A stretch of 60,408 nt of DNA from a virus. The translations under genes and the position numbers were made by a program. Each line of letters opens with the position of its first letter. The first letter of the stretch is position 1. The stretch lies in the IMG/VR virus record IMGVR_UViG_3300045988_104258, one strand, 5' to 3'. The notes under the pieces were generated by a model. It was not told the origin of the DNA. It did no database searches and saw only the letters and a list, made by a program, of their open reading frames with translations. Of the stretch, positions 26,853 to 60,169 are shown one piece after another.

Positions 26853-26886
26853 TGAAAAAGCGCACCAGCCGCTAAGCCAGTGCGCT
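26853..26886 (-). terminator. Intrinsic terminator after the NACHT-like gene
   Basis: Stem AGCGCAC/GTGCGCT (26859-26865 / 26880-26886), then UUUUUCAUUUU on the minus strand. Confidence 0.55.
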
Positions 26887-26893
26887 AATTGAA

Positions 26894-29071: not shown

Positions 29072-29132
29072 GTCAAATTCTCCCCCAAAGGTATCTGACT
29101 CAAAGTATACATCTTTTATAATTCTTAAATTG

Positions 29133-29591
29133 TCAAAAGCAAGTTTTTCTCCATGGGCAGGTGTCGCCCGGTCTTCGTTCTGTGAATACTGGCTCCAGAA
29201 TGCTGTCATCCCCATAATGGATTGCCTTATGTGTTCGATCGGATACGCAAATCACATTATCAGGGTCGAGTAAACACTCTCGGTGCTCCAGTACGTCTTC
29301 TTTTGTAATAGGGTTTATATGGTGAATGATGATACGTGGTCGGATAAGTTTTCCGTCTCGGACAACCCAGTCCGTAATCTCATGGTCAGGAACGCCAAGA
29401 TCGCACCCCATGTCTCGAACAATAATTTTGTCACGAAACATCCGCCACTCTCTGGACTGGTAAAAGTCTTGATTCAGGTATCGGTCAAAGCCGAATGTGT
29501 CATGCCCAACAGCACCATGCAGTTGTAAATAATGGAACCGGTCTTCAAAGGTCGAATACTGGCAAAGCTCAGAATATGTTCTCTGATTCAT
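29133..29591 (-). CDS. HNH endonuclease (packaging-associated)
   Basis: IIHHINPITKED...SDRTHKAIH is an HNH motif; adjacent to the small terminase-like gene. Confidence 0.7.
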   Translation of the reverse strand: MNQRTYSELCQYSTFEDRFHYLQLHGAVGHDTFGFDRYLNQDFYQSREWRMFRDKIIVRDMGCDLGVPDHEITDWVVRDGKLIRPRIIIHHINPITKEDVLEHRECLLDPDNVICVSDRTHKAIHYGDDSILEPVFTERRPGDTCPWRKTCF

Positions 29592-29922: not shown

Positions 29923-30104
29923 CCTTCTATTCTGTTTTGATTTGGTTTGTACTAGAATCTTTCCTGTTTCCCACACTTTTCAATGGCTTTTGTAAGAGTT
30001 TATGGGAGCCGGTCGTGGTGTCTTTCTAATCATTTGAAAGGAGAAGAAAAATGAACAAACGACAAATGGAGGTTGTTTGAAGAGAGCACCCTCCCATAAG
30101 CTCT

Positions 30105-30149
30105 TACAAAAACCACCGAGGCACAGTCTACACCCTGAAACCTCGGCAG
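30105..30149 (-). terminator. Intrinsic terminator ending the middle operon
   Basis: Minus-strand stem CUGCCGAGG/CCUCGGUGG (two G-U pairs), then UUUUUGU. Confidence 0.5.
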
Positions 30150-30249
30150 TAGTTAAAACCCAATTCTCAATTTTCCCTCCGGGGAAAAATCAAAGACCGA
30201 CGCGATTTGGGGAGGGGGTGTATTTTTCAAGCACCCCCCTATACCCCTT

Positions 30250-30519
30250 TTACACTGTTTGCTCTCCAGGAGCGTCATCTTTGATATCGAGTTTGAGTTT
30301 TTTGTAGATATTGAGCGGGTCATTGCCCACGATTTGGTCGATAGCCTGCTCAATTTCATACGCATTTTCTGCGTCCGTGAGCTGGTCAGAGGTGTAAGCC
30401 ATCCGCATCAGCAGCCCAGACGAGTTATAACCCTTGTCGGTGTCGAACCGATACCAGTCCTCAAACTGTTCATAAGGACTGTACGGGTTGTCAACAGTGG
30501 TTAAAAAGCATCGAATCAT
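30250..30519 (-). CDS. Hypothetical conserved phage protein
   Basis: 89 aa; FLTTVDNPYSPYEQFEDWYRFD motif seen in many Firmicute phages. Confidence 0.45.
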   Translation of the reverse strand: MIRCFLTTVDNPYSPYEQFEDWYRFDTDKGYNSSGLLMRMAYTSDQLTDAENAYEIEQAIDQIVGNDPLNIYKKLKLDIKDDAPGEQTV

Positions 30520-30534: not shown

Positions 30535-33300
30535 TTACTTGTTAAGATTGTCATAAATCGTTGACTCAGGAACGCCACAAGCCTTTGCAATCTCTGCATA
30601 GCTATAGCCGTTTGCCAACATCGCTTGTGCTTTGCCTAACTTAGCAGAAGACAACGTTGTACTTGCTTTTGGCATTGCTCGTTTGATGATTTCATCCGAC
30701 TTTGACGAGTTCAGAATCTTCATCAGCTTGGAATCAGAGATTGCACCAGCTTGAACTGCTTCCCATTCACGATCTGTGAACGTAATCTTTGTCTTGCTGC
30801 CGCTTGCACCAACAGAATCGCGTGCGCGCTGCATCTCAACAGCGGCAATCTTCTTGATTTCTTTCTTGTCCTTCTTATAGTCCAAACCTTGAGCCTGTAC
30901 TTTAGCCTTAATATTCTCGTTTGCAATAATGGTAGCACGCCTTTCTTTCGGCTTGTTACCAATAACCGCATTGAGCTTAGCGTTAATAGACTCAACCTCG
31001 GCTCTATATTTTTCGGCAGCATCAGGGCTTTTCTGGATGCCCTTCATATTTACCGCCTCTTTCCGCGCCTGATTAGCCAAAGCCTTCAGTTCATTTGAAA
31101 AATCGGCATAGTAATTTTCTTGAATGGTGCCGGAGGATAGGTCTCGTGCGTTAGGGTACATGGAAATAAGACTTACTTCCGTCATAGCTTGTACTCTCTT
31201 GCCCGTTTTTGGGTCAATAAAAGTACGCCCAGACTCCTTATATTTTTTTTCGCCCGTCTCTTTATCGATTCGAGCACTTCCTTTGCGCTCAGGCACTCGA
31301 ACGGTCTGTTTTCTTCTGGATAAGAGCGTGGATGCACCGCCATATTTTTCAGTGCCGTCCTCTTGCACTCTGATTTGCCATTTTTGCTTCAGCTCCTGGA
31401 TACCATTTTCACGTTCAGAACGTTTATAGTCCAGCTTATGCTTTTCCGCATCAATAACGACCATGGAATGCTTGACGGCACGAGCAATATCGCCTTCAGG
31501 TGCGCCGCGAAGAGTCATGTCAGTAATAAGATTGGAAATAATCCCCATCTCTTTCTGCTTTTCCTCTTTCTTCATGAGGCGCACGCCATTGGGATTTCCT
31601 TCAGGCACAGCATATGCAATCTTGGGGTCGAAGTCTTTCAAATCCTTCAGAGCGGGGGTGGATTTAATATCAACTTTGCTCGACTTTGGAATCGCTACAA
31701 CCGTATCGCCATCAAAATCAGCACCAGACAAACGTTCTGCAACCTTTGCGTTGATGCCAATTGCATCCTGCACATTGCCGAGATTTCTACGCCCGGACAA
31801 ATTCTTGTTATTGACCGTTACAATAGGAATCTCAAAGGTTCCTGCATGAGGAAAACGAACCAATGCAAGCTGAGTGCCATCAGGATATGTAGGACAATAG
31901 CATTCTCTCTCTCCGATTTTGGACAGTGGTAAAATAACCTTTGTCGCCTGACCCGGGAAAGAAGATGCTTTCAGGGTCATCGAGTTGCCCTCGCAAGTAT
32001 CTGCGAAATCAAGCAACAGCTTTTTCCGAATCGTCGGATTGTCATACTGCATAATTTCGTCATATTCTGCCTTGCGGTCAGCAATAGTAAGATCTAATTG
32101 CTGTTTCAGAAGTTTGACCGGCTGTTTGGACAGAAACTGCGAAGAAAGGTTCTTTGCCATGGTGTCCCAATCGCCTTCTTCTTTCAGCTTATTGATGGGC
32201 GACAGATGTTCTTTTCCGTCCTCACCAATATAGGTGCTCTGACCATTTGCCTTGATAGATGCGCCGAAAGGATTATCGGGGTCATCTTTGATAGGCTTTA
32301 AGACCTTCATTTTCGGAGTGCCAGATTTCTTGTTGGTGTTAAACACCACATCATAACCTTTAGGAATATCGTCAGAATATACAGCCATGCCTTTCAGATA
32401 ATGACTGTCATCCACCATGATACGAACCTGCGCATAATGTGATTTTCCGAGGTTCAGGTCAGCAACACCTCTCCGAATTTCGATAACGCCATCCTTGTCC
32501 AGACCGCCTTCATCACCATAACGAATATAAACACGGTCAGAACTCATGCTACTGGGGCGCTGAAGCTTCTTGAACGTTTCACCGCCATCTTCAGAATGAT
32601 ACTCACCAAGAGACTGGATTTCATTCTGATGCTGATATGCATATTTCTGGTCATATTCCGGCTTTGCCAGAACAGTGATGTTGGTTTGCTGGTTAATATT
32701 TGTTGGCTGACGAATGCCAACGCCATAACGCTGATATCCGTGCTCTGCCTCTAAAACAAATATAGCATCGTCCAAATCACCTTCTGAAACGCCCAGAACC
32801 AGATTTGTACCTTCGGAAACATCGATCATGCCCTTCTTATCGACTTCCTTGCGCAGGGTCTCGGCAATTTCTTTGGTTCTGGTATATTTATCAGGTTTGT
32901 CGTTCTTCAGCATCGAACGAACCGTGGATTCAGATAAACCCATCTCACGACCGATTTCTGTGGGGCCGAGCCCATCCTGAGATAAGGCACGTGCACGGTC
33001 ATATTTGAGCTGCTGGCGTTCGTGAATGGCTCTGCGTTGTGCCATACGGAACTCGGTAGCACCCATCTTATATTCTTCGGGGAGAGAATCGTTAATGGTC
33101 TGGAGAATATCCTTCTCCTTCATGCCGCTCTTCTTCAGTTCCTCAACACGTGACAGAAAATCGCCTGAACGCTGATACGGATTCTCACCGGACCCCCACG
33201 GATATCTGCCCGAGTGGCGTTTGGTACCATAATGCTCCAGGATACTGTCTTCCGGCGCGATACCGAAATATCCTCGAATATCTCTTTCTACCGGATTCAT
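30535..33300 (-). CDS. YonO-like single-polypeptide two-barrel RNA polymerase with N- and C-terminal HTH domains
   Basis: LVRFPHAGTFEIPIV...IGINAKVAERLSGADFDGDTVVAIP parallels beta-prime NRAPTLHRLGIQAF...NADFDGD. SHYLKGMAVY may be a beta-like GNKG element. HTH sequences: GLGPTEIGREMGLSESTVRSML and YSYAEIAKACGVPESTIYDNL. Confidence 0.6.
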   Translation of the reverse strand: MNPVERDIRGYFGIAPEDSILEHYGTKRHSGRYPWGSGENPYQRSGDFLSRVEELKKSGMKEKDILQTINDSLPEEYKMGATEFRMAQRRAIHERQQLKYDRARALSQDGLGPTEIGREMGLSESTVRSMLKNDKPDKYTRTKEIAETLRKEVDKKGMIDVSEGTNLVLGVSEGDLDDAIFVLEAEHGYQRYGVGIRQPTNINQQTNITVLAKPEYDQKYAYQHQNEIQSLGEYHSEDGGETFKKLQRPSSMSSDRVYIRYGDEGGLDKDGVIEIRRGVADLNLGKSHYAQVRIMVDDSHYLKGMAVYSDDIPKGYDVVFNTNKKSGTPKMKVLKPIKDDPDNPFGASIKANGQSTYIGEDGKEHLSPINKLKEEGDWDTMAKNLSSQFLSKQPVKLLKQQLDLTIADRKAEYDEIMQYDNPTIRKKLLLDFADTCEGNSMTLKASSFPGQATKVILPLSKIGERECYCPTYPDGTQLALVRFPHAGTFEIPIVTVNNKNLSGRRNLGNVQDAIGINAKVAERLSGADFDGDTVVAIPKSSKVDIKSTPALKDLKDFDPKIAYAVPEGNPNGVRLMKKEEKQKEMGIISNLITDMTLRGAPEGDIARAVKHSMVVIDAEKHKLDYKRSERENGIQELKQKWQIRVQEDGTEKYGGASTLLSRRKQTVRVPERKGSARIDKETGEKKYKESGRTFIDPKTGKRVQAMTEVSLISMYPNARDLSSGTIQENYYADFSNELKALANQARKEAVNMKGIQKSPDAAEKYRAEVESINAKLNAVIGNKPKERRATIIANENIKAKVQAQGLDYKKDKKEIKKIAAVEMQRARDSVGASGSKTKITFTDREWEAVQAGAISDSKLMKILNSSKSDEIIKRAMPKASTTLSSAKLGKAQAMLANGYSYAEIAKACGVPESTIYDNLNK

Positions 33301-33857
33301 GCTGTCGCTCCTAACTTCAGTTCAGTAATGATTTTGTTGAACTCAATGATTTTGCTAATGATAGGATCGATGTCCTCGCAAGTCGGATTCACGATCCAAA
33401 TATCATCGTTCTGGTAGATGCGGTTTTCGATTTGAATATCGCGAGGCTTGACGCCATACTCCAAGCAGAAAAGTGCATCATAGATGAAGAGCTGTTCCAT
33501 GTGTGCCGGTACCAGACCGGTCTTCAAATCGTGGATGCGCAGGAAGTTGTTTGCAAAATGAATTGTATCGGCTGTGCCATAGCAGTTCTCTGAATAATAA
33601 AGAACTACTTCCGGGGTCATGCAAAAACCGATTGCATCGTTGACATAGGAGTTGAGCGTCTTCTTACTCCGAGGAAGCTTCTGTCCTAACGCAATGCTTT
33701 CTGCAGCATATGCATGAAGCCGTGTTCCTCTCTCCTTCGCCTGATAGTTTACAAAGGACTCTGCAATCCGGGCAGCATCATAATTGATCCAATGATACTT
33801 ACTCGCCCCCAGAAAAGCGTGCTGGCCTTGCAGTCGTGAATGATCGTTCCAGTTCAT
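33297..33857 (-). CDS. PD-(D/E)XK nuclease (YqaJ/Cas4-like)
   Basis: FLGASKYHW, GTADTIHF, LRIHDLKTG motifs; SD GGAGGAG. Confidence 0.55.
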   Translation of the reverse strand: MNWNDHSRLQGQHAFLGASKYHWINYDAARIAESFVNYQAKERGTRLHAYAAESIALGQKLPRSKKTLNSYVNDAIGFCMTPEVVLYYSENCYGTADTIHFANNFLRIHDLKTGLVPAHMEQLFIYDALFCLEYGVKPRDIQIENRIYQNDDIWIVNPTCEDIDPIISKIIEFNKIITELKLGATA

Positions 33858-34119
33858 CCAGTATCTCCTCCTTATTCTCAGGATAAATAAAAGAGGCATA
33901 GCTCATCTCGTTCATCTTGGCTACGTAGTAGTCTTGATTCGGACGATGCGATACCTTGCCTGTTTTCTTTCCTTCGAGTGCTGCCCATCTGTCTCGATAT
34001 AAAACCAAGAGATCCGGAATCCCTTGAATTTCATTCGGGTCAAGATGAACGACCATGCAGCCGGGAAAGCGTTTCTTCAGGTCTTTCACCAATCCTGTTT
34101 TGAATTTGTTCTCTAGCAT
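33799..34119 (-). CDS. VRR-NUC domain nuclease
   Basis: GIPDLLVLYRDRWAALEGKK motif. Confidence 0.55.
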   Translation of the reverse strand: MLENKFKTGLVKDLKKRFPGCMVVHLDPNEIQGIPDLLVLYRDRWAALEGKKTGKVSHRPNQDYYVAKMNEMSYASFIYPENKEEILDELERSFTTARPARFSGGE

Positions 34120-34139
34120 ACAAACCTCCAAAAATAAAA

Positions 34140-34199
34140 GAGGAACAGCATGTTTTTACGCACACTGTTCCTCCCATAAAAGAGCAAGAAATTTACGCG
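34140..34199 (-). promoter_or_regulatory. Motif copy K (CGCGTAAATTTCTTGCTCTTTTATGG, 34174..34199) followed directly by a 9-bp hairpin and a U-run (34129..34173)
   Basis: GAGGAACAG (34140-34148) pairs with CTGTTCCTC (34165-34173); the minus-strand U-run runs into the SD of the gene starting at 34119. Confidence 0.45.
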
Positions 34200-39663: not shown

Positions 39664-39689
39664 CCATAATATAGTCTGTTATTTTCGCG
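39664..39689 (-). promoter_or_regulatory. 26-nt promoter-like motif, copy I
   Basis: Minus strand CGCGAAAATAACAGACTATATTATGG, 44 nt upstream of the start at 39619. Confidence 0.45.
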
Positions 39690-50504: not shown

Positions 50505-51473
50505 TTAGATTTTGTCGATGATAATGCCATCACAGTTGAAGTGCAGAATGACAGAACGCTCCTCGCCACGGAGGAAGCTCTTCAGTGCCTCATCGCTCGA
50601 TTCAAAGCTCGTGAGGCCGAAATCCACATGGTTGTGCAGCGAAGTGTCATTCGGATTGTATACCCAGCCAACGACCTGGCCAGTAGGAGTGCGCAGAGAT
50701 TGACCACCGTGCGTGCCAATCATGGTGAGCACCTCATTCAGGAACAGATGCCCCTGAGAACGCAGTTTCTTGTTCGCTGCAGACTCCATGAGGAGCAGAT
50801 AGTTCCGATTCAGGTCGGCATCCCGCTCCCACGTGTCCACAGTTTCATCGAAAATCAGAGTGCACGGATCATCTGCCTGCTCAGCGATATCCTTGTACTC
50901 TTTGATGACCTCCTCTACACCGTTCTCATCGACCTTCTTGGTTTCAACCTCCACGGCCTTAACGTTCTGCTCCAATTCATGCTGTACCCGCTCGCCAAAG
51001 CGGTCGGCGACGCGGTTCTTATAGCTGTTGAAAGACTGCTCCAGCGCGATGTAGGCAGCCGTCAGCGTTGCATTCCGCTTCGTCATGATATGATGACTGC
51101 CGAACATGCAACCGAGAGATGCTGCGCCCAGGCCAATCGCAGGTGCATACACCTTTGCAAGCTTCATACCGGTCTTAATGTAAGTCGTGGTGATGTCCTT
51201 CGTCAGGTCTTCCTTAGTGTAAGTCTCACCTTCCGACAGCTGAATTTCCCCGGAGTCTACCTTATCTTTAGTCTCGTGGATTTTCTCCACATTTGCCTTG
51301 TGCTCGGCCAGAATATACTGTGCCTTCAGGGTCGCCTTGCAGGCCAGAACGGTTGCAGTTACGCCACCGATTGCAGCACCAACCACCATGATGGTCGGGC
51401 TTGCTTTCTTCAGCTTGAATGCAGTCTTAGACAACATCTGCGTTGCCTTAGTCATGATTTCTTCCTTTTTCAT
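50505..51473 (-). CDS. Membrane-anchored paralogue family member (1 of 3)
   Basis: The N-terminal TM ...PTIMVVGAAIGGVTATVLACKAT.KA and ...APAIGLGAASLGCMFGS......RNATLTAAYIALEQSF..YKNRV are shared with 52869..53642 and 54149..54934. Confidence 0.5.
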   Translation of the reverse strand: MKKEEIMTKATQMLSKTAFKLKKASPTIMVVGAAIGGVTATVLACKATLKAQYILAEHKANVEKIHETKDKVDSGEIQLSEGETYTKEDLTKDITTTYIKTGMKLAKVYAPAIGLGAASLGCMFGSHHIMTKRNATLTAAYIALEQSFNSYKNRVADRFGERVQHELEQNVKAVEVETKKVDENGVEEVIKEYKDIAEQADDPCTLIFDETVDTWERDADLNRNYLLLMESAANKKLRSQGHLFLNEVLTMIGTHGGQSLRTPTGQVVGWVYNPNDTSLHNHVDFGLTSFESSDEALKSFLRGEERSVILHFNCDGIIIDKI

Positions 51474-52414: not shown

Positions 52415-52440
52415 GGTAATTCTCCTTTATAAAAATAAAA

Positions 52441-52466
52441 GGAGCCGCAGATTTCCCCACGGCTCC
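52441..52466 (-). terminator. Conserved hairpin, copy T2
   Basis: Plus strand GGAGCCGCAGATTTCCCCACGGCTCC; minus-strand TTTTATTTTTATA follows. Confidence 0.55.
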
Positions 52467-52485
52467 CTTGCGGCTGTCCAACAGA

Positions 52486-52797
52486 TTATTCTTCGTCGGT
52501 TTCCACCACTTCGGTCACTTCTGCTTCGATGGGCTCGTCCTTCGCCTTCTTGCTGTCAATCCAGTTCTTTGCCTTGTAGCACAGCGGAACGAGTACGTGC
52601 TTGCAGAGCAGCTCAGCGCCCTTGTAAGCTGCGGCACCAGCCAGCATGAATACTGCCGTCTTGCCAAATCTACCAGATGCGCTCGAAATCTCCGCATGGT
52701 TCTCGTCCACACTGGGCACCAGGTTATCGACCTCCGGCATTGCATCCGTCAGGTTCTCAGTCATAGCGTCCATGTTGTTCATCATTTCGTTTTCCAT
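52486..52797 (-). CDS. Small acidic membrane protein
   Basis: 103-aa ORF with SD AAAGGAG. Confidence 0.4.
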   Translation of the reverse strand: MENEMMNNMDAMTENLTDAMPEVDNLVPSVDENHAEISSASGRFGKTAVFMLAGAAAYKGAELLCKHVLVPLCYKAKNWIDSKKAKDEPIEAEVTEVVETDEE

Positions 52798-52840
52798 AGT
52801 GATTCTCCTTTAATTAAAATATAAATGTTGGAGTATACCT

Positions 52841-52866
52841 CCATAACAGTCGGTGAAATTTTCGCG
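52841..52866 (-). promoter_or_regulatory. 26-nt promoter-like motif, copy A
   Basis: Minus strand CGCGAAAATTTCACCGACTGTTATGG, 43 nt upstream of the start at 52797. Confidence 0.45.
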
Positions 52867-52868
52867 AA

Positions 52869-53642
52869 TCAATAGCCCAGCCACTTCGGAGGCGTGCTGT
52901 AGTCCAGAACCATGCAAGGCATTCCGTCCTCGTCCAGCTTGGAACTGTAGAATGTTTCAATGGTCAGCGTGGAATCCGTATCCCAGCCCAAAAGGTCGCC
53001 GTTCTTGGTGTGCTCCAGTCCCAGATAATCGAACAGGTCATTCTGGGTCACACGAAAATCGCTCAGGAGTTGCTTGTTCAGGCCGTTCATCGCCCGATCC
53101 AGTGCATTTACGGTCGTCTTGAAATATCTTCCAGAGAAGCTTTCATAGCACTCGACCAGCTGGTCGTAAGATGCGTCGCGGGCTGCCGGTACAATAACCG
53201 GCGTTTCTTCCGGCTGCTTTGCCATCTTATCAAGGGTGATGGTCTGGCGAAGCTCTTTCTCCTTCTCCTCGCCGATGGTTTCCACGACTTTCTCCTGATA
53301 CTGCTTCAGGGCGCTTTCGCTCAGAGAATACGCGGCCGCCAGAGCTGCATTGCGCCGGTCGTTCTCATTCATGGCACCAATCATGCAGCCTGCAGATGCT
53401 ACCATGGAAATCGCCGTAGGAATATAAGCCGGAGCAGCCGTCTTTACGATGGTTTTCACATCCAGCTTCTCCGTGCCAAGTTCCTGCTTCTTCTCATCGA
53501 GCAGGATCATCGCCTTGGGAGTTGCCTTGACGGCGAAAACCACGCTCGTGACCATGCCCGCAATGCTGCCGCAGACCAGGATTTTGGGAAGGTTCTTTGC
53601 AATACCCTTTCCCACTTTCTTGCTAAATGTTTTCAGGTTCAT
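52869..53642 (-). CDS. Membrane-anchored paralogue family member (2 of 3)
   Basis: LPKILVCGSIAGMVTSVVFAVKATPKA ... AAPAYIPTAISMVASAGCMIGA...RRNAALAAAYSLSESALKQYQEKV. Confidence 0.5.
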   Translation of the reverse strand: MNLKTFSKKVGKGIAKNLPKILVCGSIAGMVTSVVFAVKATPKAMILLDEKKQELGTEKLDVKTIVKTAAPAYIPTAISMVASAGCMIGAMNENDRRNAALAAAYSLSESALKQYQEKVVETIGEEKEKELRQTITLDKMAKQPEETPVIVPAARDASYDQLVECYESFSGRYFKTTVNALDRAMNGLNKQLLSDFRVTQNDLFDYLGLEHTKNGDLLGWDTDSTLTIETFYSSKLDEDGMPCMVLDYSTPPKWLGY

Positions 53643-53672
53643 TTTTCATACCTCCGTAAAATATAAAAGAAA

Positions 53673-53696
53673 GAGCCGCAGATTTCTCCGCAGCCC
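53673..53696 (-). terminator. Conserved hairpin, copy T3
   Basis: Plus strand GAGCCGCAGATTTCTCCGCAGCCC; pairs on the minus-strand RNA with two G-U pairs. Confidence 0.5.
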
Positions 53697-53704
53697 TTTG
53701 CTTC

Positions 53705-53920
53705 TTAGTAGAGCTTATCCTCCGCACAATGGCGGTTTTTGTATGCTCCTCTCCTTCTTACCGGAGCAGGGTCATCCGTCAACCAGCTGTAGAGCCGAAT
53801 CGGCTGCAGGAGCAAGTACCAGATCAGCGCATCAAGTGCACTAAGCATCGCTCGCCCCAGCACCTTTAAGGCACCCAGCATCTCAGAATCCACCTGCTTG
53901 AAGTATTCGTGATCGAACAT
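53705..53920 (-). CDS. Small membrane protein
   Basis: Start MFDHEYF with SD GGAGGT. Confidence 0.35.
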   Translation of the reverse strand: MFDHEYFKQVDSEMLGALKVLGRAMLSALDALIWYLLLQPIRLYSWLTDDPAPVRRRGAYKNRHCAEDKLY

Positions 53921-53951
53921 AATTTTTACCTCCAATTCTTTTAGGATTTCT

Positions 53952-53977
53952 CCATAATAGCGTTGGAATTTTTCGCG
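53952..53977 (-). promoter_or_regulatory. 26-nt promoter-like motif, copy B
   Basis: Minus strand CGCGAAAAATTCCAACGCTATTATGG, 31 nt upstream of the start at 53920. Confidence 0.45.
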
Positions 53978-53978
53978 A

Positions 53979-54143
53979 TTAGAGGTTCTTTTCCGACAGC
54001 TGCTTGCGAACTTCTTCCTGAACCATATCCCGCAGGTCGTCCTCGGTCTTCTGGTCCTCGATCAGGTCATGCCCGAAGCCCATGATTGCGCTTGCTGCCA
54101 GCATCGCCATGGATGCAACTTTCCACCAGTTAATGTTCTTCAT
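53979..54143 (-). CDS. Small membrane protein (54 aa, below the ORF-track cutoff)
   Basis: MKNINWWKVASMAMLAASAIMGF...; translated by hand. Confidence 0.3.
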   Translation of the reverse strand: MKNINWWKVASMAMLAASAIMGFGHDLIEDQKTEDDLRDMVQEEVRKQLSEKNL

Positions 54144-54148
54144 AAATA

Positions 54149-54934
54149 TCATGCTCCTTTATAATCCAAATGCCGTTTCATAGCATCATAATCCAGAAAT
54201 TCTTTAATAGGTTCCTGAAATGCTTCTACATAGTAGACTTCCAGTCCATCATCGGTCGTCTGCTTATAATAGTTGAAGTCAATCCAGTAATACTCCCACT
54301 CATTGGCGAGGTATTCTGCGCACCACCCCAGTGTATCCCCTTCTGGCGTGAAGTCCAACCCCGGCAGATAGGAAGTGAAATCATTCATTGACAATTCGCC
54401 GTTTAATGCAAAATACCGATTTGCATTGTAAAAAGCGTCCGTCAATTCGATCTCGGTGGCATGGAAATATCTTTTTGAGATAGGCTCGTAGCAGAGCAGC
54501 TTCTCCTCTTCCATCTTTTCACGGACTTCCGGAAGCTTTTCTTCTTTGATTTGATCGTGAATCTCGGCTTCTTTTTCGATACCAAAATTCTCAATCACTT
54601 TCTGCCGATACTCCTGATACGCCTTTCCAAGTGCCATGTAGCCAGCGGTCAGGCTCGCAATCTGCTTCTTGTTCAGCGCATTGGAACCGAGGATACATGC
54701 GATGGTCCCCGCGCCAAGTGCCGCGGCAGGCAGATAAAACTTCCAGCAGTCCTGTATTTTTTCTTTCATGGTATACACAGGCTCTGCAGAGTTCATCTCA
54801 ATAAGCTTCTCTGCCTTGATACTCGCCTTACCCGTTTCGATGGCAGTCAACACCACTCCCACGGAAGCGCCAATTGCCAAGATTGTCCCGCCATTCTTTT
54901 TCAAGAACCGGGACGCGGATTTCATGAGGTTCAT
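54149..54934 (-). CDS. Membrane-anchored paralogue family member (3 of 3)
   Basis: GGTILAIGASVGVVLTAIETGKASIKA ... LPAAALGAGTIACILGS...KKQIASLTAGYMALGKAYQEYRQKV. Confidence 0.5.
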   Translation of the reverse strand: MNLMKSASRFLKKNGGTILAIGASVGVVLTAIETGKASIKAEKLIEMNSAEPVYTMKEKIQDCWKFYLPAAALGAGTIACILGSNALNKKQIASLTAGYMALGKAYQEYRQKVIENFGIEKEAEIHDQIKEEKLPEVREKMEEEKLLCYEPISKRYFHATEIELTDAFYNANRYFALNGELSMNDFTSYLPGLDFTPEGDTLGWCAEYLANEWEYYWIDFNYYKQTTDDGLEVYYVEAFQEPIKEFLDYDAMKRHLDYKGA

Positions 54935-54964
54935 AGGCTTCTCCCTTCAAATATAAAAGACAAA

Positions 54965-54988
54965 GAGCCGCAGATTTCTCCACGGCCC
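54965..54988 (-). terminator. Conserved hairpin, copy T4
   Basis: Plus strand GAGCCGCAGATTTCTCCACGGCCC. Confidence 0.5.
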
Positions 54989-54999
54989 TGAGCCTGTCA

Positions 55000-55247
55000 T
55001 CAACAATTTCTCATCTTTTCACCAAGGCTGGCGAAACAGTCTGTAAAGATTTCAAATACTTTCTGGTCACGCTTGCGATATTTGCTGTTGATTTTCGCAT
55101 TGATCGCATCTGCGGCCGCATAATTCCCATCCAGAACCATGTCGTTCCAAATATGGGCTATAGCATACGGACCGTAAAACGCATAATTTGATCAATAGCA
55201 CATAATACCGCCGTGCATACCAGAATTACTTTTACCATCTTTTTCAT
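55000..55247 (-). pseudogene. Small membrane-protein gene split by a 1-nt frameshift at a homopolymer
   Basis: MKKMVKVILVCTAVLCAIDQIMRF stops after 29 codons. The -1 frame continues YGPYAIAHIWNDMVLDGNYAAADAINAK... to 55000. One extra T in the coding-strand T4 run (plus-strand A4 at 55176-55179) would restore an 82-aa ORF. Confidence 0.4.
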
Positions 55248-55288
55248 AATTTCATGCCTCCAAAATGTAATTTTGAGATTTCATATCT

Positions 55289-55314
55289 CCATAAGATGGC
55301 ATGAATTTTTCGCG
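55289..55314 (-). promoter_or_regulatory. 26-nt promoter-like motif, copy C
   Basis: Minus strand CGCGAAAAATTCATGCCATCTTATGG, 41 nt upstream of the ATG at 55247. Confidence 0.45.
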
Positions 55315-55539
55315 TCAACAGATTCCTGCCTTCTTCAAAATATCCATGAGGTCGGCCTTCGGCATCTCAGCATCCAGTTCCAGATGAACATTCACCTTCT
55401 GCTCCTTATCAGACCATTCGGCTCGAATATCATCCAGATTGACCGTGATACCATACTTCTGTTTGGCAATCGCCTTGTTGATAGCCGAAGAAATGATTCG
55501 GCGCATAAAACTTGACCGGATAAGCATTAAGTCCTCCAT
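55315..55539 (-). CDS. Hypothetical protein
   Basis: 74-aa ORF. Confidence 0.35.
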   Translation of the reverse strand: MEDLMLIRSSFMRRIISSAINKAIAKQKYGITVNLDDIRAEWSDKEQKVNVHLELDAEMPKADLMDILKKAGIC

Positions 55540-55561
55540 GATGTTCTTCTCCTTTTATGAT

Positions 55562-55747
55562 TTATTCAACTCGCTTATAGTCGTGCAATTCCGGGCACTC
55601 GTCTTCTTCACAGTCCGTCACGGTCCATTCATCGCACCAATCGATGGTTTCTGTATCCTGACAATCTGCAATCTGCATTGCGTCTGCAGGAGTCGCGGCC
55701 TCAACCCAGATAGTGCCAGTTCTAACTACTGTAACTGCATATTTCAT
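55562..55747 (-). CDS. Small acidic Cys-containing protein
   Basis: Start MKYAVTV with SD AAAGGAGAAG. Confidence 0.35.
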   Translation of the reverse strand: MKYAVTVVRTGTIWVEAATPADAMQIADCQDTETIDWCDEWTVTDCEEDECPELHDYKRVE

Positions 55748-55922
55748 TGTTCTTCTCCTTTTAAGATATCGAAGTAAACTTCTATGGCTTTCCGAAACAC
55801 TTCTGATTTCGTTTGATCTGTTCATTCACTAAGATTTGTGAGCATTTCAGCTTCTTCGGCTGTAAGTCGTATTTTGAATGTCACATCCCGTGTAACCTCT
55901 TTGGGCGGTCTGCCTCTCATAG

Positions 55923-56285
55923 CTAAATCAAACTTCTATCAAACACTGTCTCCCAGCGTTCTTTTTTCAGTGGTTTCATTCGTAAGGCCCACATGATTTG
56001 CCGGACTGTGACGGTAGGATAGCAGCCATTCGCATCTTTCTTCTTTGCATGGTGGTCAAAATATTCCTTGAATCCAGCATGCAGATAGATTTTGTCGTTC
56101 AACCATGGGTCAATAGCGCTCCATGTGGTGGATTTCGTTTTCTCGTTAAAACGCTGCTGGATAACGCAAAGGCCTTTTTCATGGTCCAAATATAATGTAC
56201 TGATGCGATAGACCGGATGATTGCATCGGTACGTTTGACCATAGTAGTTTGTCCAATTTTCAGGTGGTAGATTATGGTATCTCAT
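55923..56285 (-). CDS. Hypothetical protein
   Basis: 120-aa ORF. Confidence 0.4.
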   Translation of the reverse strand: MRYHNLPPENWTNYYGQTYRCNHPVYRISTLYLDHEKGLCVIQQRFNEKTKSTTWSAIDPWLNDKIYLHAGFKEYFDHHAKKKDANGCYPTVTVRQIMWALRMKPLKKERWETVFDRSLI

Positions 56286-56295
56286 AAAAGAAAGA

Positions 56296-56321
56296 GAAGC
56301 TGCAGATTTCTCCGCAGCCTC
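56296..56321 (-). terminator. Conserved hairpin, copy T5 (compensatory stem changes)
   Basis: Plus strand GAAGCTGCAGATTTCTCCGCAGCCTC; CCG/CGG is replaced by CTG/CAG while the loop is retained. Confidence 0.5.
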
Positions 56322-56334
56322 TCCTGTCCCTCCT

Positions 56335-56760
56335 TTATACAGACTTTTTTCCGTAATCCTTGTAGATCATCTTGCCGTCCCGATAGCGGTCGTCGAACAC
56401 CTGCACACCGCCTGCCGAACAAATTGCCCAGAACCGGTCATGGTGAATCATCAGAAATGCCCCCAGAGCGGTCGATGCAATACCAGCTACGACTTTCGCC
56501 ACTTCGGTTTTCCAAGCCTTCTCTGCCTTGTCTGCTTCGATTCTGAGTTCATTTGTCTTCATCTGAAGCTCATCCTCTCGTGCATTCTTGTCAGCCAGGT
56601 TTGTTTTCTCCTTAACGCGAATTTCGTAGAACTTTGCAGCGCACTCGTAGGCAGCCTTGTACTCATCGCTTCCCGGTGTCAGATCCTTAATTCGTTCAAG
56701 CTCGTGCTTAATCGTTTCGTCCATCAACTTTTCGTTCTGGACTGCATTCAGTTCTTCCAT
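56335..56760 (-). CDS. Coiled-coil protein with a C-terminal TM segment
   Basis: 141-aa ORF. Confidence 0.4.
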   Translation of the reverse strand: MEELNAVQNEKLMDETIKHELERIKDLTPGSDEYKAAYECAAKFYEIRVKEKTNLADKNAREDELQMKTNELRIEADKAEKAWKTEVAKVVAGIASTALGAFLMIHHDRFWAICSAGGVQVFDDRYRDGKMIYKDYGKKSV

Positions 56761-56799
56761 TTTGATTATCTCCTTTTAAGTCAATATTTGGAGTTTTCT

Positions 56800-56825
56800 C
56801 CATTAAACAGAATGTTTTTCTCGCG
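56800..56825 (-). promoter_or_regulatory. 26-nt promoter-like motif, degenerate copy J
   Basis: Minus strand CGCGAGAAAAACATTCTGTTTAATGG, 39 nt upstream of the start at 56760; overlaps the 3' end of the upstream ORF. Confidence 0.35.
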
Positions 56826-57063
56826 GCTTCAGTTTACTCACCTTGTTCACTTTGAGAATAACATACTGTTTATCGGCAAAGTCTACGGATTCCCCACCCA
56901 AGTTCAAGAACAGACTTGGGTTCTCGTTCTCGTCTGCCTGAGCAACGATAAGGGAGCCAATCGTTTCGGCCTCGTAGTCAATCTTCCACCGAACAGCAGA
57001 ACCAACCACGAAGCCAATGGTCGCACAGATAAGCCCCAGACCAATGATGATGTACATTTTCAA
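56803..57063 (-). CDS. Small membrane protein
   Basis: 86 aa with an N-terminal TM segment. Confidence 0.4.
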   Translation of the reverse strand: MKMYIIIGLGLICATIGFVVGSAVRWKIDYEAETIGSLIVAQADENENPSLFLNLGGESVDFADKQYVILKVNKVSKLKPREKHSV

Positions 57064-57119
57064 ATCTCCTTTGTAATAGAATAATGGATAAACCGGTCGT
57101 ATGCGTGATGAAAATAAAA

Positions 57120-57145
57120 GGAGCCGCAGATTTCTCCACGGCTCC
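57120..57145 (-). terminator. Conserved hairpin, copy T6
   Basis: Plus strand GGAGCCGCAGATTTCTCCACGGCTCC; minus-strand TTTTATTTTC follows. Confidence 0.55.
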
Positions 57146-57153
57146 CTTACGCC

Positions 57154-57387
57154 TTAAATGTCGTTTCTGATCAAGAACAGGTCGTTACGATTGCAAGCAG
57201 GTCTCACAATCCCTTTTGCCCGAATCAACGCGATTGCATTGGCATAAGCCGCGCGTGCACTTTGAGCGTTCTTGTACTCGCCTGTATCAATGTACATGAC
57301 TTTCTGGTTGCTCTCGATGAATACGCGGATCTTGTCCATTGCGTTCACATAGCCTCGATCATAGGTAGTCTTTACTCGTTTGCTCAT
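57154..57387 (-). CDS. Hypothetical protein
   Basis: Start MSKRVKT with SD AAAGGAG. Confidence 0.4.
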   Translation of the reverse strand: MSKRVKTTYDRGYVNAMDKIRVFIESNQKVMYIDTGEYKNAQSARAAYANAIALIRAKGIVRPACNRNDLFLIRNDI

Positions 57388-57423
57388 AATAAATTCTCCT
57401 TTCAATTTTCAGAAGACATCCTT

Positions 57424-57449
57424 CCATAATAGAATACGAAAAGTTCGCG
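57424..57449 (-). promoter_or_regulatory. 26-nt promoter-like motif, copy D
   Basis: Minus strand CGCGAACTTTTCGTATTCTATTATGG, 36 nt upstream of the start at 57387. Confidence 0.45.
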
Positions 57450-57471
57450 TTGGCTAACCTAGAATAAAAAA

Positions 57472-57541
57472 GAAAGAGAACGGGAATCGAACCCGTAACC
57501 TCTGCATTCCAGCAGCGCTCTACCAATTGAGCTATCTCCTT
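57472..57541 (-). tRNA. tRNA-like gene with a defective or short anticodon arm (70 nt; possible pseudo-tRNA)
   Basis: Acceptor AAGGAGA/TCTCTTT (one G-U), D-arm TAGCTCAATTGGTAGAGC, T-arm ACGGGTTCGATTCCCGT. Only 20 nt lie between the D and T stems where 23 are expected. Best pairing is CTGC/GCAG with a 6-nt loop TGGAAT. Confidence 0.45.
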
Positions 57542-57567
57542 CCATAAAAGAAGATGAAAATTTCGCG
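57542..57567 (-). promoter_or_regulatory. 26-nt promoter-like motif, copy E (abuts the tRNA-like 5' end)
   Basis: Minus strand CGCGAAATTTTCATCTTCTTTTATGG. Confidence 0.45.
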
Positions 57568-57594
57568 AACAAAAAGCAGAGGGCGTGTTTTAAT

Positions 57595-57768
57595 TTACTT
57601 ATTGCTCTTTGTCTTGTCAGAATCCAAATTTTCTCTTGCCTTTTGCAGCTTGATGTATGCCACATATGCTTCCATGGTTGTCGCCACCAAGCAAATTGCA
57701 GCACTGCCAGCTTTCATAAAAGGTACAGTCCCTAAAAGTTTCTTTCCAATGACATATCTAGCTTTCAT
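57595..57768 (-). CDS. Small membrane protein
   Basis: Start MKARYVIG with SD GGAGGATG. Confidence 0.35.
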   Translation of the reverse strand: MKARYVIGKKLLGTVPFMKAGSAAICLVATTMEAYVAYIKLQKARENLDSDKTKSNK

Positions 57769-57797
57769 AGTATCATCCTCCAATATGCCCTCTACTT

Positions 57798-57823
57798 CCA
57801 TAAAGGAAAATGAAAATTTCACG
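57798..57823 (-). promoter_or_regulatory. 26-nt promoter-like motif, copy F
   Basis: Minus strand CGTGAAATTTTCATTTTCCTTTATGG, 29 nt upstream of the start at 57768. Confidence 0.45.
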
Positions 57824-57840
57824 AACAGGCAAAAAATAAA

Positions 57841-57864
57841 GAGTCGTAGATTTCTCCACGGCTC
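57841..57864 (-). terminator. Conserved hairpin, copy T7
   Basis: Plus strand GAGTCGTAGATTTCTCCACGGCTC; minus-strand TTTATTTTTT follows. Confidence 0.5.
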
Positions 57865-57872
57865 TCTTTCCA

Positions 57873-58061
57873 CTAGCAAGAAAGTTCTACCCAACAGTGG
57901 TACTGCCCACAAGGTAAAGCGTCATGCGAAGGATGCTTCATCTTATACGGACACGCCTCGCAATTCCTAATATTATCTGGGTCTGCGAGGAATTCTCGTA
58001 TTAGTGCATTATCACTTCCATCACGTTTCCATTGTATATGCTTCCACTTTTCATTAGGCAT
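57873..58061 (-). CDS. Cys-rich small protein
   Basis: 62 aa; CEACPYK...CGQYHC. Confidence 0.4.
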   Translation of the reverse strand: MPNEKWKHIQWKRDGSDNALIREFLADPDNIRNCEACPYKMKHPSHDALPCGQYHCWVELSC

Positions 58062-58073
58062 AACTAATCACCT

Positions 58074-58099
58074 CCATAAAACACCCTGAATTTCTCGCG
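58074..58099 (-). promoter_or_regulatory. 26-nt promoter-like motif, copy G
   Basis: Minus strand CGCGAGAAATTCAGGGTGTTTTATGG, 12 nt upstream of the start at 58061. Confidence 0.45.
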
Positions 58100-58111
58100 T
58101 CCAAAAAGTAA

Positions 58112-58135
58112 GAGTCGTAGATTTCTCCACGGCTC
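58112..58135 (-). terminator. Conserved hairpin, copy T8
   Basis: Plus strand GAGTCGTAGATTTCTCCACGGCTC. Confidence 0.5.
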
Positions 58136-58144
58136 TCGCCTTTC

Positions 58145-58450
58145 TTAGTAAACGAGATAATTCGTATACTGCTTCTTTTCTACTTGCTTGATCACACCTG
58201 CTTTTTTCAGCAGCTCAAAATCACGGATGATCTCGCCCATGCTGAATGCCTCAAATTCGACATTGAAGTCCGTGCGCTTCTTCTTTCCATCTTCGTAGGT
58301 TCTGATCGAATAGACCATCTGGCTAACCAGCCTCGGGTCCATCTTACAGTTCCGACGAACGACTTCCATCATCAGCTCACGTCCTTCATAGTCGTCATCT
58401 CTGACACCCTTCACGATAACGGTCATGTGATTTACTTTGCTATTAAACAT
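58145..58450 (-). CDS. Hypothetical protein
   Basis: Start MFNSKVNHM with SD AAAGGAG. Confidence 0.4.
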   Translation of the reverse strand: MFNSKVNHMTVIVKGVRDDDYEGRELMMEVVRRNCKMDPRLVSQMVYSIRTYEDGKKKRTDFNVEFEAFSMGEIIRDFELLKKAGVIKQVEKKQYTNYLVY

Positions 58451-58489
58451 ATTGTGTTCTCCTTTGTATTTAAACAGTGAATATTCGTT

Positions 58490-58515
58490 CCATAAAGGAA
58501 CCTGCAATTTTCGCG
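58490..58515 (-). promoter_or_regulatory. 26-nt promoter-like motif, copy H
   Basis: Minus strand CGCGAAAATTGCAGGTTCCTTTATGG, 39 nt upstream of the start at 58450. Confidence 0.45.
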
Positions 58516-58516
58516 T

Positions 58517-58939
58517 TCACTGCCGTTCCTTACTCAGGAGCCAGAAGAAATAATGGTAAAACTTATAGTATGTTTTTCTGCAGCATGGGCACCCATTGGC
58601 TCTCAGTGCATCATAGCACACCTCTTCCGTCACACCTCTTAATACGTATGGTGCAATAGCAGGTTCTAGCTTTGCTACACAGCGGTCGATAATATCAATG
58701 TGCATCGAATAGTAGGCTCGTATCATAGCCTGCCGCTCTGTCGAGCTTTCTGGGAGGCTTCCTCTTATAATTCCAGAAACCTCGTGGCTGCTCGATTCCC
58801 ACCCGTTGACTTGTTCTAAAGCCTTTTTCCAGTCCGGGTACTGCAAGCAAAAGTTTTTCAGCTCGTAGTAGCGGTATTTAGTTATGTAGAAGGAGCTTTT
58901 CTTTGAGAGTTCTGGTTTTTCATTCCGCAATTTTTTCAT
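58517..58939 (-). CDS. Putative phage transcription regulator (RinA/ArpU or sigma region-4-like); first early gene
   Basis: 140 aa; YYELKNFCLQYPDWKK ... YVLRGVTEEVCYDAL... pattern; first gene after the integrase; family call is tentative. Confidence 0.35.
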   Translation of the reverse strand: MKKLRNEKPELSKKSSFYITKYRYYELKNFCLQYPDWKKALEQVNGWESSSHEVSGIIRGSLPESSTERQAMIRAYYSMHIDIIDRCVAKLEPAIAPYVLRGVTEEVCYDALRANGCPCCRKTYYKFYHYFFWLLSKERQ

Positions 58940-60101: not shown

Positions 60102-60169
60102 TTTATCGCCATTCGTTTGACTTATTTATCGCTATGAGAGCATAATTCTACATTTTTTATAGCGATAAA
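60102..60169. repeat. Three copies of TTTATCGC(C/T)AT (two direct, one inverted) upstream of int
   Basis: 60102-60112, 60125-60135 and the inverted copy ATAGCGATAAA at 60159-60169; the last two form an 11-bp perfect inverted repeat with a 23-nt spacer. Confidence 0.6.

Follow-up and report, generated by a model that had tools for sequence, protein, structure and literature searches.

The subject of this study is a motif of the form CGCGAA-N14-TTATGG that recurs upstream of early and middle genes in a 60,408-nucleotide (nt) stretch of viral DNA, IMG/VR virus record IMGVR_UViG_3300045988_104258 (here called the window). The motif is very likely a promoter, to judge from its sequence and distribution, and it probably represents the promoter class of a single-polypeptide RNA polymerase of the two-barrel type encoded by the phage itself, a candidate enzyme of 921 amino acids (aa) with a GADFDGD loop. 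By its sequence, the window is a Faecalibacterium prophage of the Oengus type, and it is 81% identical in DNA to phage FP_oengus over the replication module. Read along the minus strand, it runs from the 3' end of a host spo0A-like gene through a tyrosine integrase, a gene for a 140-aa protein and an array of small genes with the motif and GAAA-loop terminators, to the replication genes, an operon for a VRR-Nuc protein, a Cas4-type exonuclease and the 921-aa protein, a cos-like region and the structural genes.

Copies of the motif in the window

The preliminary description of this DNA had placed eleven copies of the motif on the minus, coding strand, 12-54 nt upstream of start codons and in one case against a tRNA-like gene; a pattern count and an independent weight matrix agree on all eleven. 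The exact pattern has 7 occurrences in the window, all of them on the minus strand, where 100 dinucleotide shuffles predict 0.00. With up to two mismatches allowed, 17 matches were found versus 4.6 expected, and the degenerate copies at 57798, 58074, 56800 and 34174 are all among the 17. The weight matrix was trained on relatives only, the window sequence being left out, and when scanned over both strands of the window it returned exactly the eleven sites, with scores of 30-44 bits. The opposite strand was empty, no further site on either strand reached 12 bits, and the maximum in shuffled sequence was 6.9 bits. All genes in the motif-bearing part of the window lie on the minus strand, and the distances from motif end to start codon, when re-measured, again spanned 12-54 nt. 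The copies are:

58490..58515, minus strand: copy 1, 43.6 bits; begins 1 nt past the stop codon of the 140-aa gene, with a start codon 39 nt downstream
58074..58099, minus strand: copy 2, preceded by a GAAA-loop terminator; GGAGG at motif positions 25-29
57798..57823, minus strand: copy 3, CGTGAA variant, preceded by a terminator
57542..57567, minus strand: copy 4, whose last G (position 26) is the first base of the tRNA-like gene
57424..57449, minus strand: copy 5, found by exact pattern and weight matrix
56800..56825, minus strand: copy 6, degenerate (TTAATGG), overlapping the stop codon of the upstream open reading frame (ORF); 31.3 bits
55289..55314, minus strand: copy 7, found by exact pattern and weight matrix
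53952..53977, minus strand: copy 8, found by exact pattern and weight matrix
52841..52866, minus strand: copy 9, found by exact pattern and weight matrix
39664..39689, minus strand: copy 10, in the replication module; counterpart of the FP_oengus copy at 22540
34174..34199, minus strand: copy 11, preceding the VRR-Nuc/Cas4-exonuclease/polymerase operon

The GGAGG of copy 2 is at the same time the ribosome-binding site of a 62-aa gene, whose start codon stands at position 39 counted from the motif start. No copy of the motif was found at late genes in either the window or FP_oengus. Hairpin terminators alternate with the motif copies:

52438..58137, minus strand: early terminator family, seven hairpins with a GAAA loop (CCGTGGAGAAATCTRCGG type)
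58103-58137, 57831-57866, 57117-57148, 56292-56325, 54964-54989, 53670-53699 and 52438-52469, minus strand: the individual terminators

By sequence, these early terminators (52438-58137, minus strand) constitute a separate family (GAGCCGTGGAGAAATCTRCGRCTC, GAAA loop). The small ORFs framed by putative promoters and terminators vary in number and order between near-identical relatives, an organization like that of the mobile promoter-stem-loop cassettes of T4-type phages.

Conserved bases and occurrence in related phages

The motif consists of C1-G2-C3-R4, seven A/T-rich bases, C12-A13, five further bases, a TATnnT-like hexamer at positions 19-24 and a purine run from position 25, and its conserved bases were refined with a logo of 141 unique sites. 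The two sub-boxes, C1-G2-C3-R4 and C12-A13, are spaced by about one helical turn. Conservation extends beyond the 26 nt originally delimited, to G-1, A0, A27, R28 and A31. Most hexamers read YTTTAT or TTTTAT, and with T at position 20 in 102 of the 141 sites, TATTAT is a minority form. C12 and A13 are nearly invariant and the TTC is not conserved; hence the partial palindrome GAA-N3-TTC, to which the preliminary description had drawn attention, is not a selected feature.

The same architecture was found in related phages. Among 29 viral contigs that were collected through homology to the 140-aa protein, a loose form of the pattern matched 258 times on the coding strand and not once on the opposite strand, and FP_oengus has about 14 copies on its coding strand. 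The variants of other lineages are:

L109/L111 clade: ttCGCAGAA-N4-CA-N5-TATTATGGAG; same geometry, changed bases
L029: TTCGTAAAATTTACA-N5-TATAATGAAG; 17 copies, most of them directly behind a T run
Camille (Microbacterium phage): CGCGTAAAnAACA-N5-TATGRTGAGAACC; 8 copies
1706 (Lactococcus phage): CRCATGTTTTACA-N5-TATAGTAGAAAG; about 10 copies
HotFries (Streptomyces phage): CGCACGTTTTACA-N5-TATAGTGAGACCCCTAC; 6 copies
Arcadia (Arthrobacter phage): CGCGTAAATTACA-N5-TATAAT; 7 copies

In Camille, 1706, HotFries and Arcadia the repeats occupy the coding strand of an array of small genes that follows the tail genes. The putative promoters of 1706 and HotFries are nearly identical (CGCAYGTTTTACA-N5-TATAGT), and the hosts of these two phages belong to different phyla.

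A further set of loci came from Clostridia, for which one genome per bacterial species was scanned and the best 80 polymerase loci (48-99% identity) were kept. Upstream sequence was long enough in 78 of these (65 unique sequences), and 72 of the 78 have a copy of the motif, mostly 900-990 nt upstream of the polymerase start, where it stands before the VRR-Nuc/exonuclease/polymerase operon. The position of copy 11 is thus occupied in these diverse prophage loci and also in FP_oengus and Camille. The polymerase-operon consensus from the 65 unique sequences is CGCGAAAAAAACA-TnCCC-TTTTAT-GAAGAGA. Across lineages, 7-11 bases downstream of the hexamer are conserved, as GAGACCCCTAC, AGAAAGA or GAAGAGA. 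The expectation that the motif would be kept in related phages was confirmed, in that it was retained, strand-specifically, in every relative examined, and we regard the element as ancient. No copy was found in 50 kb of SPbeta sequence spanning yonO, and in the stretches examined of SPbeta and of MT835477 neither the motif nor the polymerase gene was found. MT835485 has motif copies and a homologue of the 140-aa protein and gave no polymerase match; the record is of a truncated prophage, which ends with the scaffold, is flanked by host genes on its other side and includes no structural genes. We found no description of the motif in the literature on Oengus, Microbacterium and Arthrobacter phages, YonO, P23-45 or the shared ancestry of these phages.

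The conserved bases also bear on the suggestion that the motif is a repressor operator, similar to the stoperators of Cluster A mycobacteriophages, or a binding site of host Spo0A. Such a role would be in keeping with a site that is asymmetric, multi-copy, intergenic and oriented with transcription; moreover, the motif has a CGAA core in common with the 0A box, and the prophage adjoins host spo0A. We nevertheless regard it as highly improbable, since the motif occurs in virulent or lytic phages without integrase or repressor (1706; Camille, listed as lytic), late genes are devoid of it, and CGAA is not kept between clades. The resemblance to the 0A box noted in the preliminary description did not hold up: only CGAA fits TGNCGAA, and the sister clades have CGCAGAA, CGTAAAA and CGCACGT. 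To our knowledge Actinobacteria lack Spo0A, and the motif is also present in phages of Actinobacteria. A sigma-54 reading (GCACG-N4, resembling TGGCACG-N4-TTGC) was discarded by inspection, as the invariant GG and GC are absent and Actinobacteria lack sigma-54.

The probable reader of the motif

Three proteins encoded in the window had been put forward as readers: the polymerase-like protein, the 140-aa protein and a group of Spo0A_C-like helix-turn-helix (HTH) proteins. The first of these stood up to comparison with other lineages, as it co-occurs with the motif in all of them, and the other two did not. The genes in question and the neighbors of the polymerase gene are:

30535..33300, minus strand: 921-aa RNA-polymerase-like protein, the proposed reader; SGADFDGDT loop and two HTH domains
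30250..30519, minus strand: 89-aa gene, always after the polymerase gene, also in Camille, HotFries and 1706
33799-34131, minus strand: VRR-Nuc-like gene, same operon as the polymerase; kept in all lineages
33297-33899, minus strand: Cas4-type exonuclease gene, same operon as the polymerase; kept in all lineages
58517..58939, minus strand: 140-aa first gene (phrog_11237), PHROG family with function unknown

All ORFs of the window were compared locally with Camille, HotFries and 1706, and eight non-structural genes proved common to the four lineages: those for a 227-aa protein, a DUF6353 protein, the DNA polymerase, a helicase, VRR-Nuc, the exonuclease, the RNA polymerase and the 89-aa protein. 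Among the eight, an HTH was found only in the RNA polymerase (the scan did not include the DNA polymerase and the helicase). The motif and the polymerase gene occur together in FP_oengus, 1706, Camille, HotFries, Arcadia and 72 of the 78 Clostridia loci. The polymerase is hence the only DNA-binding candidate that travels with the motif, and for this reason we infer that it is the reader.

The two HTH domains of the polymerase resemble region 4 of sigma factors. The C-terminal one (aa 892-918) scores above the Pfam Sigma70_r4_2 threshold, and the N-terminal one (aa ~105-130) gives a weaker match to region 4 of sigma-70 and extracytoplasmic-function (ECF) factors. Their recognition-helix residues are invariant from Faecalibacterium to Streptomyces phages, which parallels the conservation of the sub-boxes C1-R4 and C12-A13, and it is these sub-boxes that the HTH domains may contact. 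The SGADFDGDT and RFPH segments are likewise invariant in 7 sequences from 5 host genera; the R-x-P-H segment lies ~45 residues upstream of the DxDGD loop, and both segments align with YonO. In PHROG the protein falls into phrog_4291, 'RNA-dependent RNA polymerase' (E = 0), and a published HHpred search had matched the family to PF05183 (95.7%; 10.1101/842583). From the DFDGD loop, the PHROG assignment and this HHpred match, the 921-aa protein would be a polymerase of the two-barrel type. The polymerase-like gene has been described as a signature gene of a cross-phylum phage group, in a study that did not analyze promoters (10.1101/842583). By BLAST, full-length homologues ~44% identical are present in 250 phage records (Arthrobacter, Gordonia, Streptomyces, Lactococcus, Microbacterium and other hosts), among which there is no Bacillus phage, and at least 8000 database proteins match the polymerase family. 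The 89-aa protein, which gave no family match, is a possible cofactor of the polymerase.

A further alternative is that the 140-aa protein, expressed from a host-type promoter, acts as a sigma-like or RinA-like factor and directs the host polymerase to the motif. Its gene is the first after the integrase, the first motif copy begins 1 nt past its stop codon, and the motif variant shifts between clades that have copies of the protein 100-56%, 43-45% and 32% identical. Yet motif arrays exist in 1706, Camille, HotFries and Arcadia without a detectable homologue, MT835477 has a distant homologue without any motif array, and in the L109/L111 clade there are motif copies upstream of the 140-aa gene itself. 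The protein has no Pfam or NCBIfam match, and its sole PHROG family is of unknown function. Its predicted structure is all-helical, with a predicted local distance difference test score (pLDDT) of 84, and Foldseek against PDB found no significant fold match, including to sigma or RinA-type folds (best E = 2.3); against sigma folds specifically the best matches had E >3 and template-modeling (TM) scores <=0.38. We therefore give this alternative very little credence. No homologue of the 140-aa protein was detected outside the gut Clostridia group, and the Spo0A_C-like HTH proteins are confined to the Oengus clade; both being so restricted, neither is the common reader. A role for the 140-aa protein in starting the lytic programme from the prophage is possible. 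Its family comprises at least 404 proteins with invariant residues that include C31, C119, W37 and W133.

The predicted transcript start and the sigma-A question

Three independent features that adjoin the motif locate the putative 5' end of the RNA at about positions 25-26, the GG of TTATGG: the starts of tRNA-like genes, the ribosome-binding sites and a leader hairpin. The corresponding elements of the window are:

57471-57542, minus strand: tRNA-like gene whose anticodon loop has 6 nt, with a T run behind it; called by ARAGORN and by Rfam tRNA (55.9 bits)
34138-34175, minus strand: terminator-like leader hairpin with T run, beginning at positions 25-26 of copy 11

Copy 4 (57542-57567), the tRNA-like gene and the T run together form a minimal unit of promoter, RNA and terminator. 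In about 25 Oengus-clade contigs and in FP_oengus this 72-nt gene starts at position 26, and in the L109/L110/L111 clade a different, 77-nt tRNA-like gene starts at position 28; in both cases a T run comes next and then the following motif copy. The Oengus-clade gene has an anticodon stem of 4-5 bp with a 6-nt loop (TGGAAT, TTGATT or TTAATT; for example 2935-3006 in L001), and the second-clade gene a 6-bp stem with a loop of 6-8 nt (for example 13416-13492 in L109). With such abnormal anticodon arms they are probably non-decoding RNAs, such as anticodon-nuclease decoys or primers.

In 41 of 135 units of the Oengus clade and 8 of 26 of the second clade, the first base of the ribosome-binding site falls within positions 25-31, for the most part within 25-29 (for example TTTTAT-GGAGGTGATTAGTT-ATG); a few of these automatic calls are tRNA-like artefacts. 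In 38 of 46 unique leaders of the polymerase operon, pairing in the hairpin starts at position 25 or 26. Behind the hairpin there is a T-rich tail in 34 of the 46, and the mean z-score is -2.3. A hairpin is found at the same position in L123-L202, where structure is kept and sequence is not. Control by attenuation or antitermination is thus suggested for the polymerase operon, and perhaps for the late genes too, as at PR'-tR' of lambda. The resulting layout, if correct, has a T7-like geometry of recognition box, A/T-rich melting segment and purine-rich initial transcript.

Strand specificity and the placement upstream of start codons would equally fit a motif that acts within RNA 5' leaders, as a processing site or as the target of a translational regulator, and the purine run does overlap ribosome-binding sites. 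Within the motif, however, there is neither covariation nor excess folding energy: candidate pairs were complementary in 39-76% of cases, with mutual information <=0.14 and a mean z of -0.6. Several copies stand behind strong terminators, where transcription must be initiated anew, and one is the only plausible promoter of the stand-alone tRNA-like unit. A role at the RNA level is thus quite improbable. An RNA hairpin between positions 16-19 and 25-28, tried as a candidate, was rejected for lack of covariation.

The preliminary description had put the motif forward as a candidate phage-specific promoter that does not look like a standard sigma-A promoter, and this is sustained by its strand specificity, its conservation in every relative examined and the lack of a -35 element: the logo has at most 0.5 bit of information at the expected positions, and a sigma-A consensus scan of the window picked up none of the 11 copies. 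TTTACA inside the box was considered as a -35 element and dismissed, as it lies merely 5 bp from the hexamer. To read the two last variable bases plus TTAT as a -10 hexamer with a start ~7 nt downstream clashes with the tRNA-like ends, the leader hairpin and the ribosome-binding sites. Were transcription to start at position 31, both tRNA-like genes would be truncated, the leader hairpin would be cut and, in ~30% of units, the ribosome-binding site would be lost.

A version of the sigma-A idea can still be framed in which host polymerase with sigma-A uses the hexamer at 19-24 and starts near 31, and a phage box-binding protein, for instance an injected HTH protein acting as activator, replaces recognition of the -35 element. 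The box would then be centered at about -25 to -30, as in the middle promoters of T4 with their MotA box and TAnnnT, and the box-hexamer spacing indeed resembles MotA-box geometry as generally known from T4. The hexamer is TATAAT in L029 and Arcadia and TATnnT in Camille, so that the rule for a -10 hexamer (A at 2, T at 6) applies in the Arthrobacter, Microbacterium and L029 lineages; A31 is conserved; and intrinsic terminators between the units fit a host polymerase. Against this, Clostridia hexamers are without the essential A (T at position 20 in the majority of sites, as noted above, and TTTTAT in nearly all polymerase-operon copies), and 1706 retains a suboptimal TATAGT in all of its copies. 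The start at 31 does the damage just described, no small DNA-binding protein is conserved across all lineages, and near-identical promoters in Lactococcus and Streptomyces phages are hard to square with host-specific factors. On this evidence we consider recognition by the host polymerase rather unlikely.

A proposed mechanism and the points that weigh against it

If the phage polymerase is the reader, its two fused sigma-region-4-like HTH domains would bind C1-G2-C3-R4 and C12-A13, the A/T-rich hexamer at 19-24 would serve as the melting region, and RNA synthesis would begin at purines 25-26, conservation running on into the first transcribed bases. The copies would drive the small early genes and the tRNA-like RNA, many of them bounded by hairpin terminators, as well as a few middle genes and the polymerase's own operon with its terminator-like leader hairpin. 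The polymerase would probably be delivered with the DNA in infecting virions, which would make early transcription independent of host sigma factors. We propose this delivery because the 1706 homologue, orf75, is labeled 'structural protein' in the depositors' GenBank record, a label that presumably goes back to virion mass spectrometry. In the prophage, the first polymerase molecules might come from read-through from the host-type promoter region before the 140-aa gene, or from weak recognition of the hexamer by the host enzyme. As for the late genes, one may speculate that polymerase-operon transcription reads through the joined cos site into them.

Several observations tell against this reading. 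1) The case for polymerase activity consists of the loop, the PHROG name and the HHpred match. 2) An hhalign comparison of the 921-aa protein with YonO gave a probability <1%; a PDB profile search returned HTH matches only, plus the AR9 beta' chain at E = 1.5, and a PDB sequence search HTH matches only. 3) The AlphaFold model has a pLDDT of 54, with the catalytic core <50, and comes from a shallow alignment, for which database searches gave only relatives at least 75% identical. 4) The characterized relative YonO transcribes late genes, not early genes (PMC5467207). 5) The polymerase operon has the same promoter, so that a start from the prophage without virion protein needs another source of the enzyme. 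6) In the Arthrobacter, Microbacterium and L029 lineages the hexamer makes a good TATAAT or TAnnnT, and the conserved A31 occupies the spot expected for a sigma-type start. 7) Several genes sit behind terminators without any motif copy, which means that read-through must also occur.

The fullest form of the proposal is that one polypeptide constitutes a complete, host-independent system, in which a two-barrel core and two sigma-region-4-like HTH domains read a bipartite box, the enzyme is delivered by the virion, transcription starts at GG, and the promoter, since it moves together with its enzyme, has been maintained in phages of both Actinobacteria and Firmicutes. We put the chances of all these parts holding jointly at slightly below even.

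Implications

Were this so, the enzyme-promoter pair may have let this phage group cross phylum boundaries, and would explain why the G+C content of its members is often far from that of their hosts. We found no published description of the activity or the promoter of this polymerase family. If the reading is confirmed, this branch of single-chain two-barrel polymerases would have its first known promoter, and here sigma-4-like domains that are part of a polymerase would be recognizing promoters; the pair would also be a candidate orthogonal expression system for Gram-positive bacteria of two phyla. With a defined promoter of ~31 bp and a predicted start, the enzyme becomes directly testable in vitro. 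The motif would also account for the expression of the early gene arrays in these phages, and as a sequence signature it allows early, middle and polymerase operons to be annotated in hundreds of genomes. The Oengus type ranks with the most prevalent phages of the human gut, with detection in up to 40% of virome samples (PMC5883640).

Other elements of the prophage

A number of further elements of the window and its relatives, all on the minus strand where the window is concerned, are recorded here:

26859-29076, minus strand: perfect sigma-A consensus promoter TTGACA-17-TATAAT (29076-29048) before a 773-aa ORF (26894-29215), with a strong terminator (26886-26859) behind it
30168-30239, minus strand: GGGGGGTGCTTGAAAAATACACCCCCTCC...CGCGTCGGTCT / TTGATTTTTCCCCGGAGGG, matching the physical genome ends of Arcadia, Camille, HotFries and 1706
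29987-30112, minus strand: 22-nt inverted repeat (TTTTTGTAAGAGCTTATGGGAG ... CTCCCATAAACTCTTACAAAAG) around ~80 nt
60102-60169, minus strand: TTATCGCTAT/ATAGCGATAA in three copies, of which two form an inverted repeat, between the host spo0A-like gene end and the integrase
50505-51473, 52869-53642 and 54149-54934, minus strand: three DUF6353 paralogues in the early/middle region

The 773-aa ORF has no Pfam, NCBIfam or PADLOC match and is absent from FP_oengus; it resembles a cargo gene with expression of its own, inserted where the structural module begins. Since the sequence at 30168-30239 matches the genome ends of relatives, it is likely the cos site, located between the polymerase operon and the late genes. 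The 22-nt inverted repeat lies just past a hairpin with T run (30107-30149) and before the first late gene, gave no Rfam match, and could serve as a regulatory DNA element or as a structured leader; the arrangement recurs in FP_oengus at 31.8-32.0 kb. The repeats near the integrase resemble an operator or an attachment-site arm. Homologues of DUF6353 are present in Camille and HotFries, and of one paralogue also in 1706, so that DUF6353 belongs to the small number of families outside replication that the whole phage group retains. Among the relatives, a reverse transcriptase is found next to a large tail-fiber-like ORF in L120 (MT835485; 28237-32421), where that ORF has collagen-like repeats, and in L109 (2488-5226), which points to diversity-generating retroelements.

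Comparison with known systems

The middle promoters of T4, with a MotA box and a -10 element, likewise have a box ~12 bp upstream of a TAnnnT-like hexamer. Unlike them, the motif described here often has a hexamer that is not compatible with sigma, and neither MotA nor AsiA was found among the proteins tested. A second parallel with T4, one of organization only, lies in its promoter-early stem-loop (PeSL) cassettes, in which small early ORFs stand between a conserved promoter and a stem-loop and the sets differ between close relatives.

The virion polymerases of N4 and crAss-like phages also present an injected enzyme that transcribes early genes from few conserved promoters without host sigma. 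They are giant proteins, and the N4 promoters are hairpins. No hairpin is conserved in the window motif, unlike in N4, and the putative virion association of the present enzyme comes from a single annotation.

The nearest characterized enzyme in Firmicutes is YonO of the Bacillus prophage SPbeta, which has one start site, at a late operon, and whose promoter sequence is unknown (PMC5467207). It shares with the window protein a single chain of ~100 kDa, the DxDGD loop, a temperate Firmicutes phage as its source, and a gene located just upstream of the late genes.

With the promoters of the T7/T3/SP6 class the motif has in common one conserved, strand-specific sequence of ~25-30 bp repeated before many genes, its division into a recognition part that lies upstream, an A/T-rich stretch just before the start and a conserved, purine-rich beginning of the transcript, and its conservation between related phages whatever the host; CTATAG-TAGAAAG of 1706 and TTAT-GGAAGGA of the window may be set against TATA-GGGAGA of T7. 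Unlike the T7-class enzymes, which have the Pol I fold, the protein here is a DFDGD, apparently two-barrel-type protein with fused HTH domains, and five variable bases part the box from the start region, the start itself being a predicted one.

Thermus phage P23-45 encodes a virion (gp96) and a non-virion (gp64) two-barrel polymerase, with AT-rich and GC-rich promoter motifs (PMC10770324). These are single-polypeptide two-barrel polymerases of a siphovirus, each with a motif of its own before early genes, and one is carried in the virion; the system proposed here would resemble them in these respects. The P23-45 virion enzyme differs in being fused to the tape measure protein, and the P23-45 motifs are unrelated to that of the window. 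HTH domains did not turn up in a search of the P23-45 polymerase paper (PMC10770324), and PDB searches with the 921-aa protein detected no sequence similarity to solved structures beyond the HTH matches. Taken together, the motif comes closest to the promoter classes of phage-encoded polymerases, and most of all to those of the P23-45 two-barrel enzymes.

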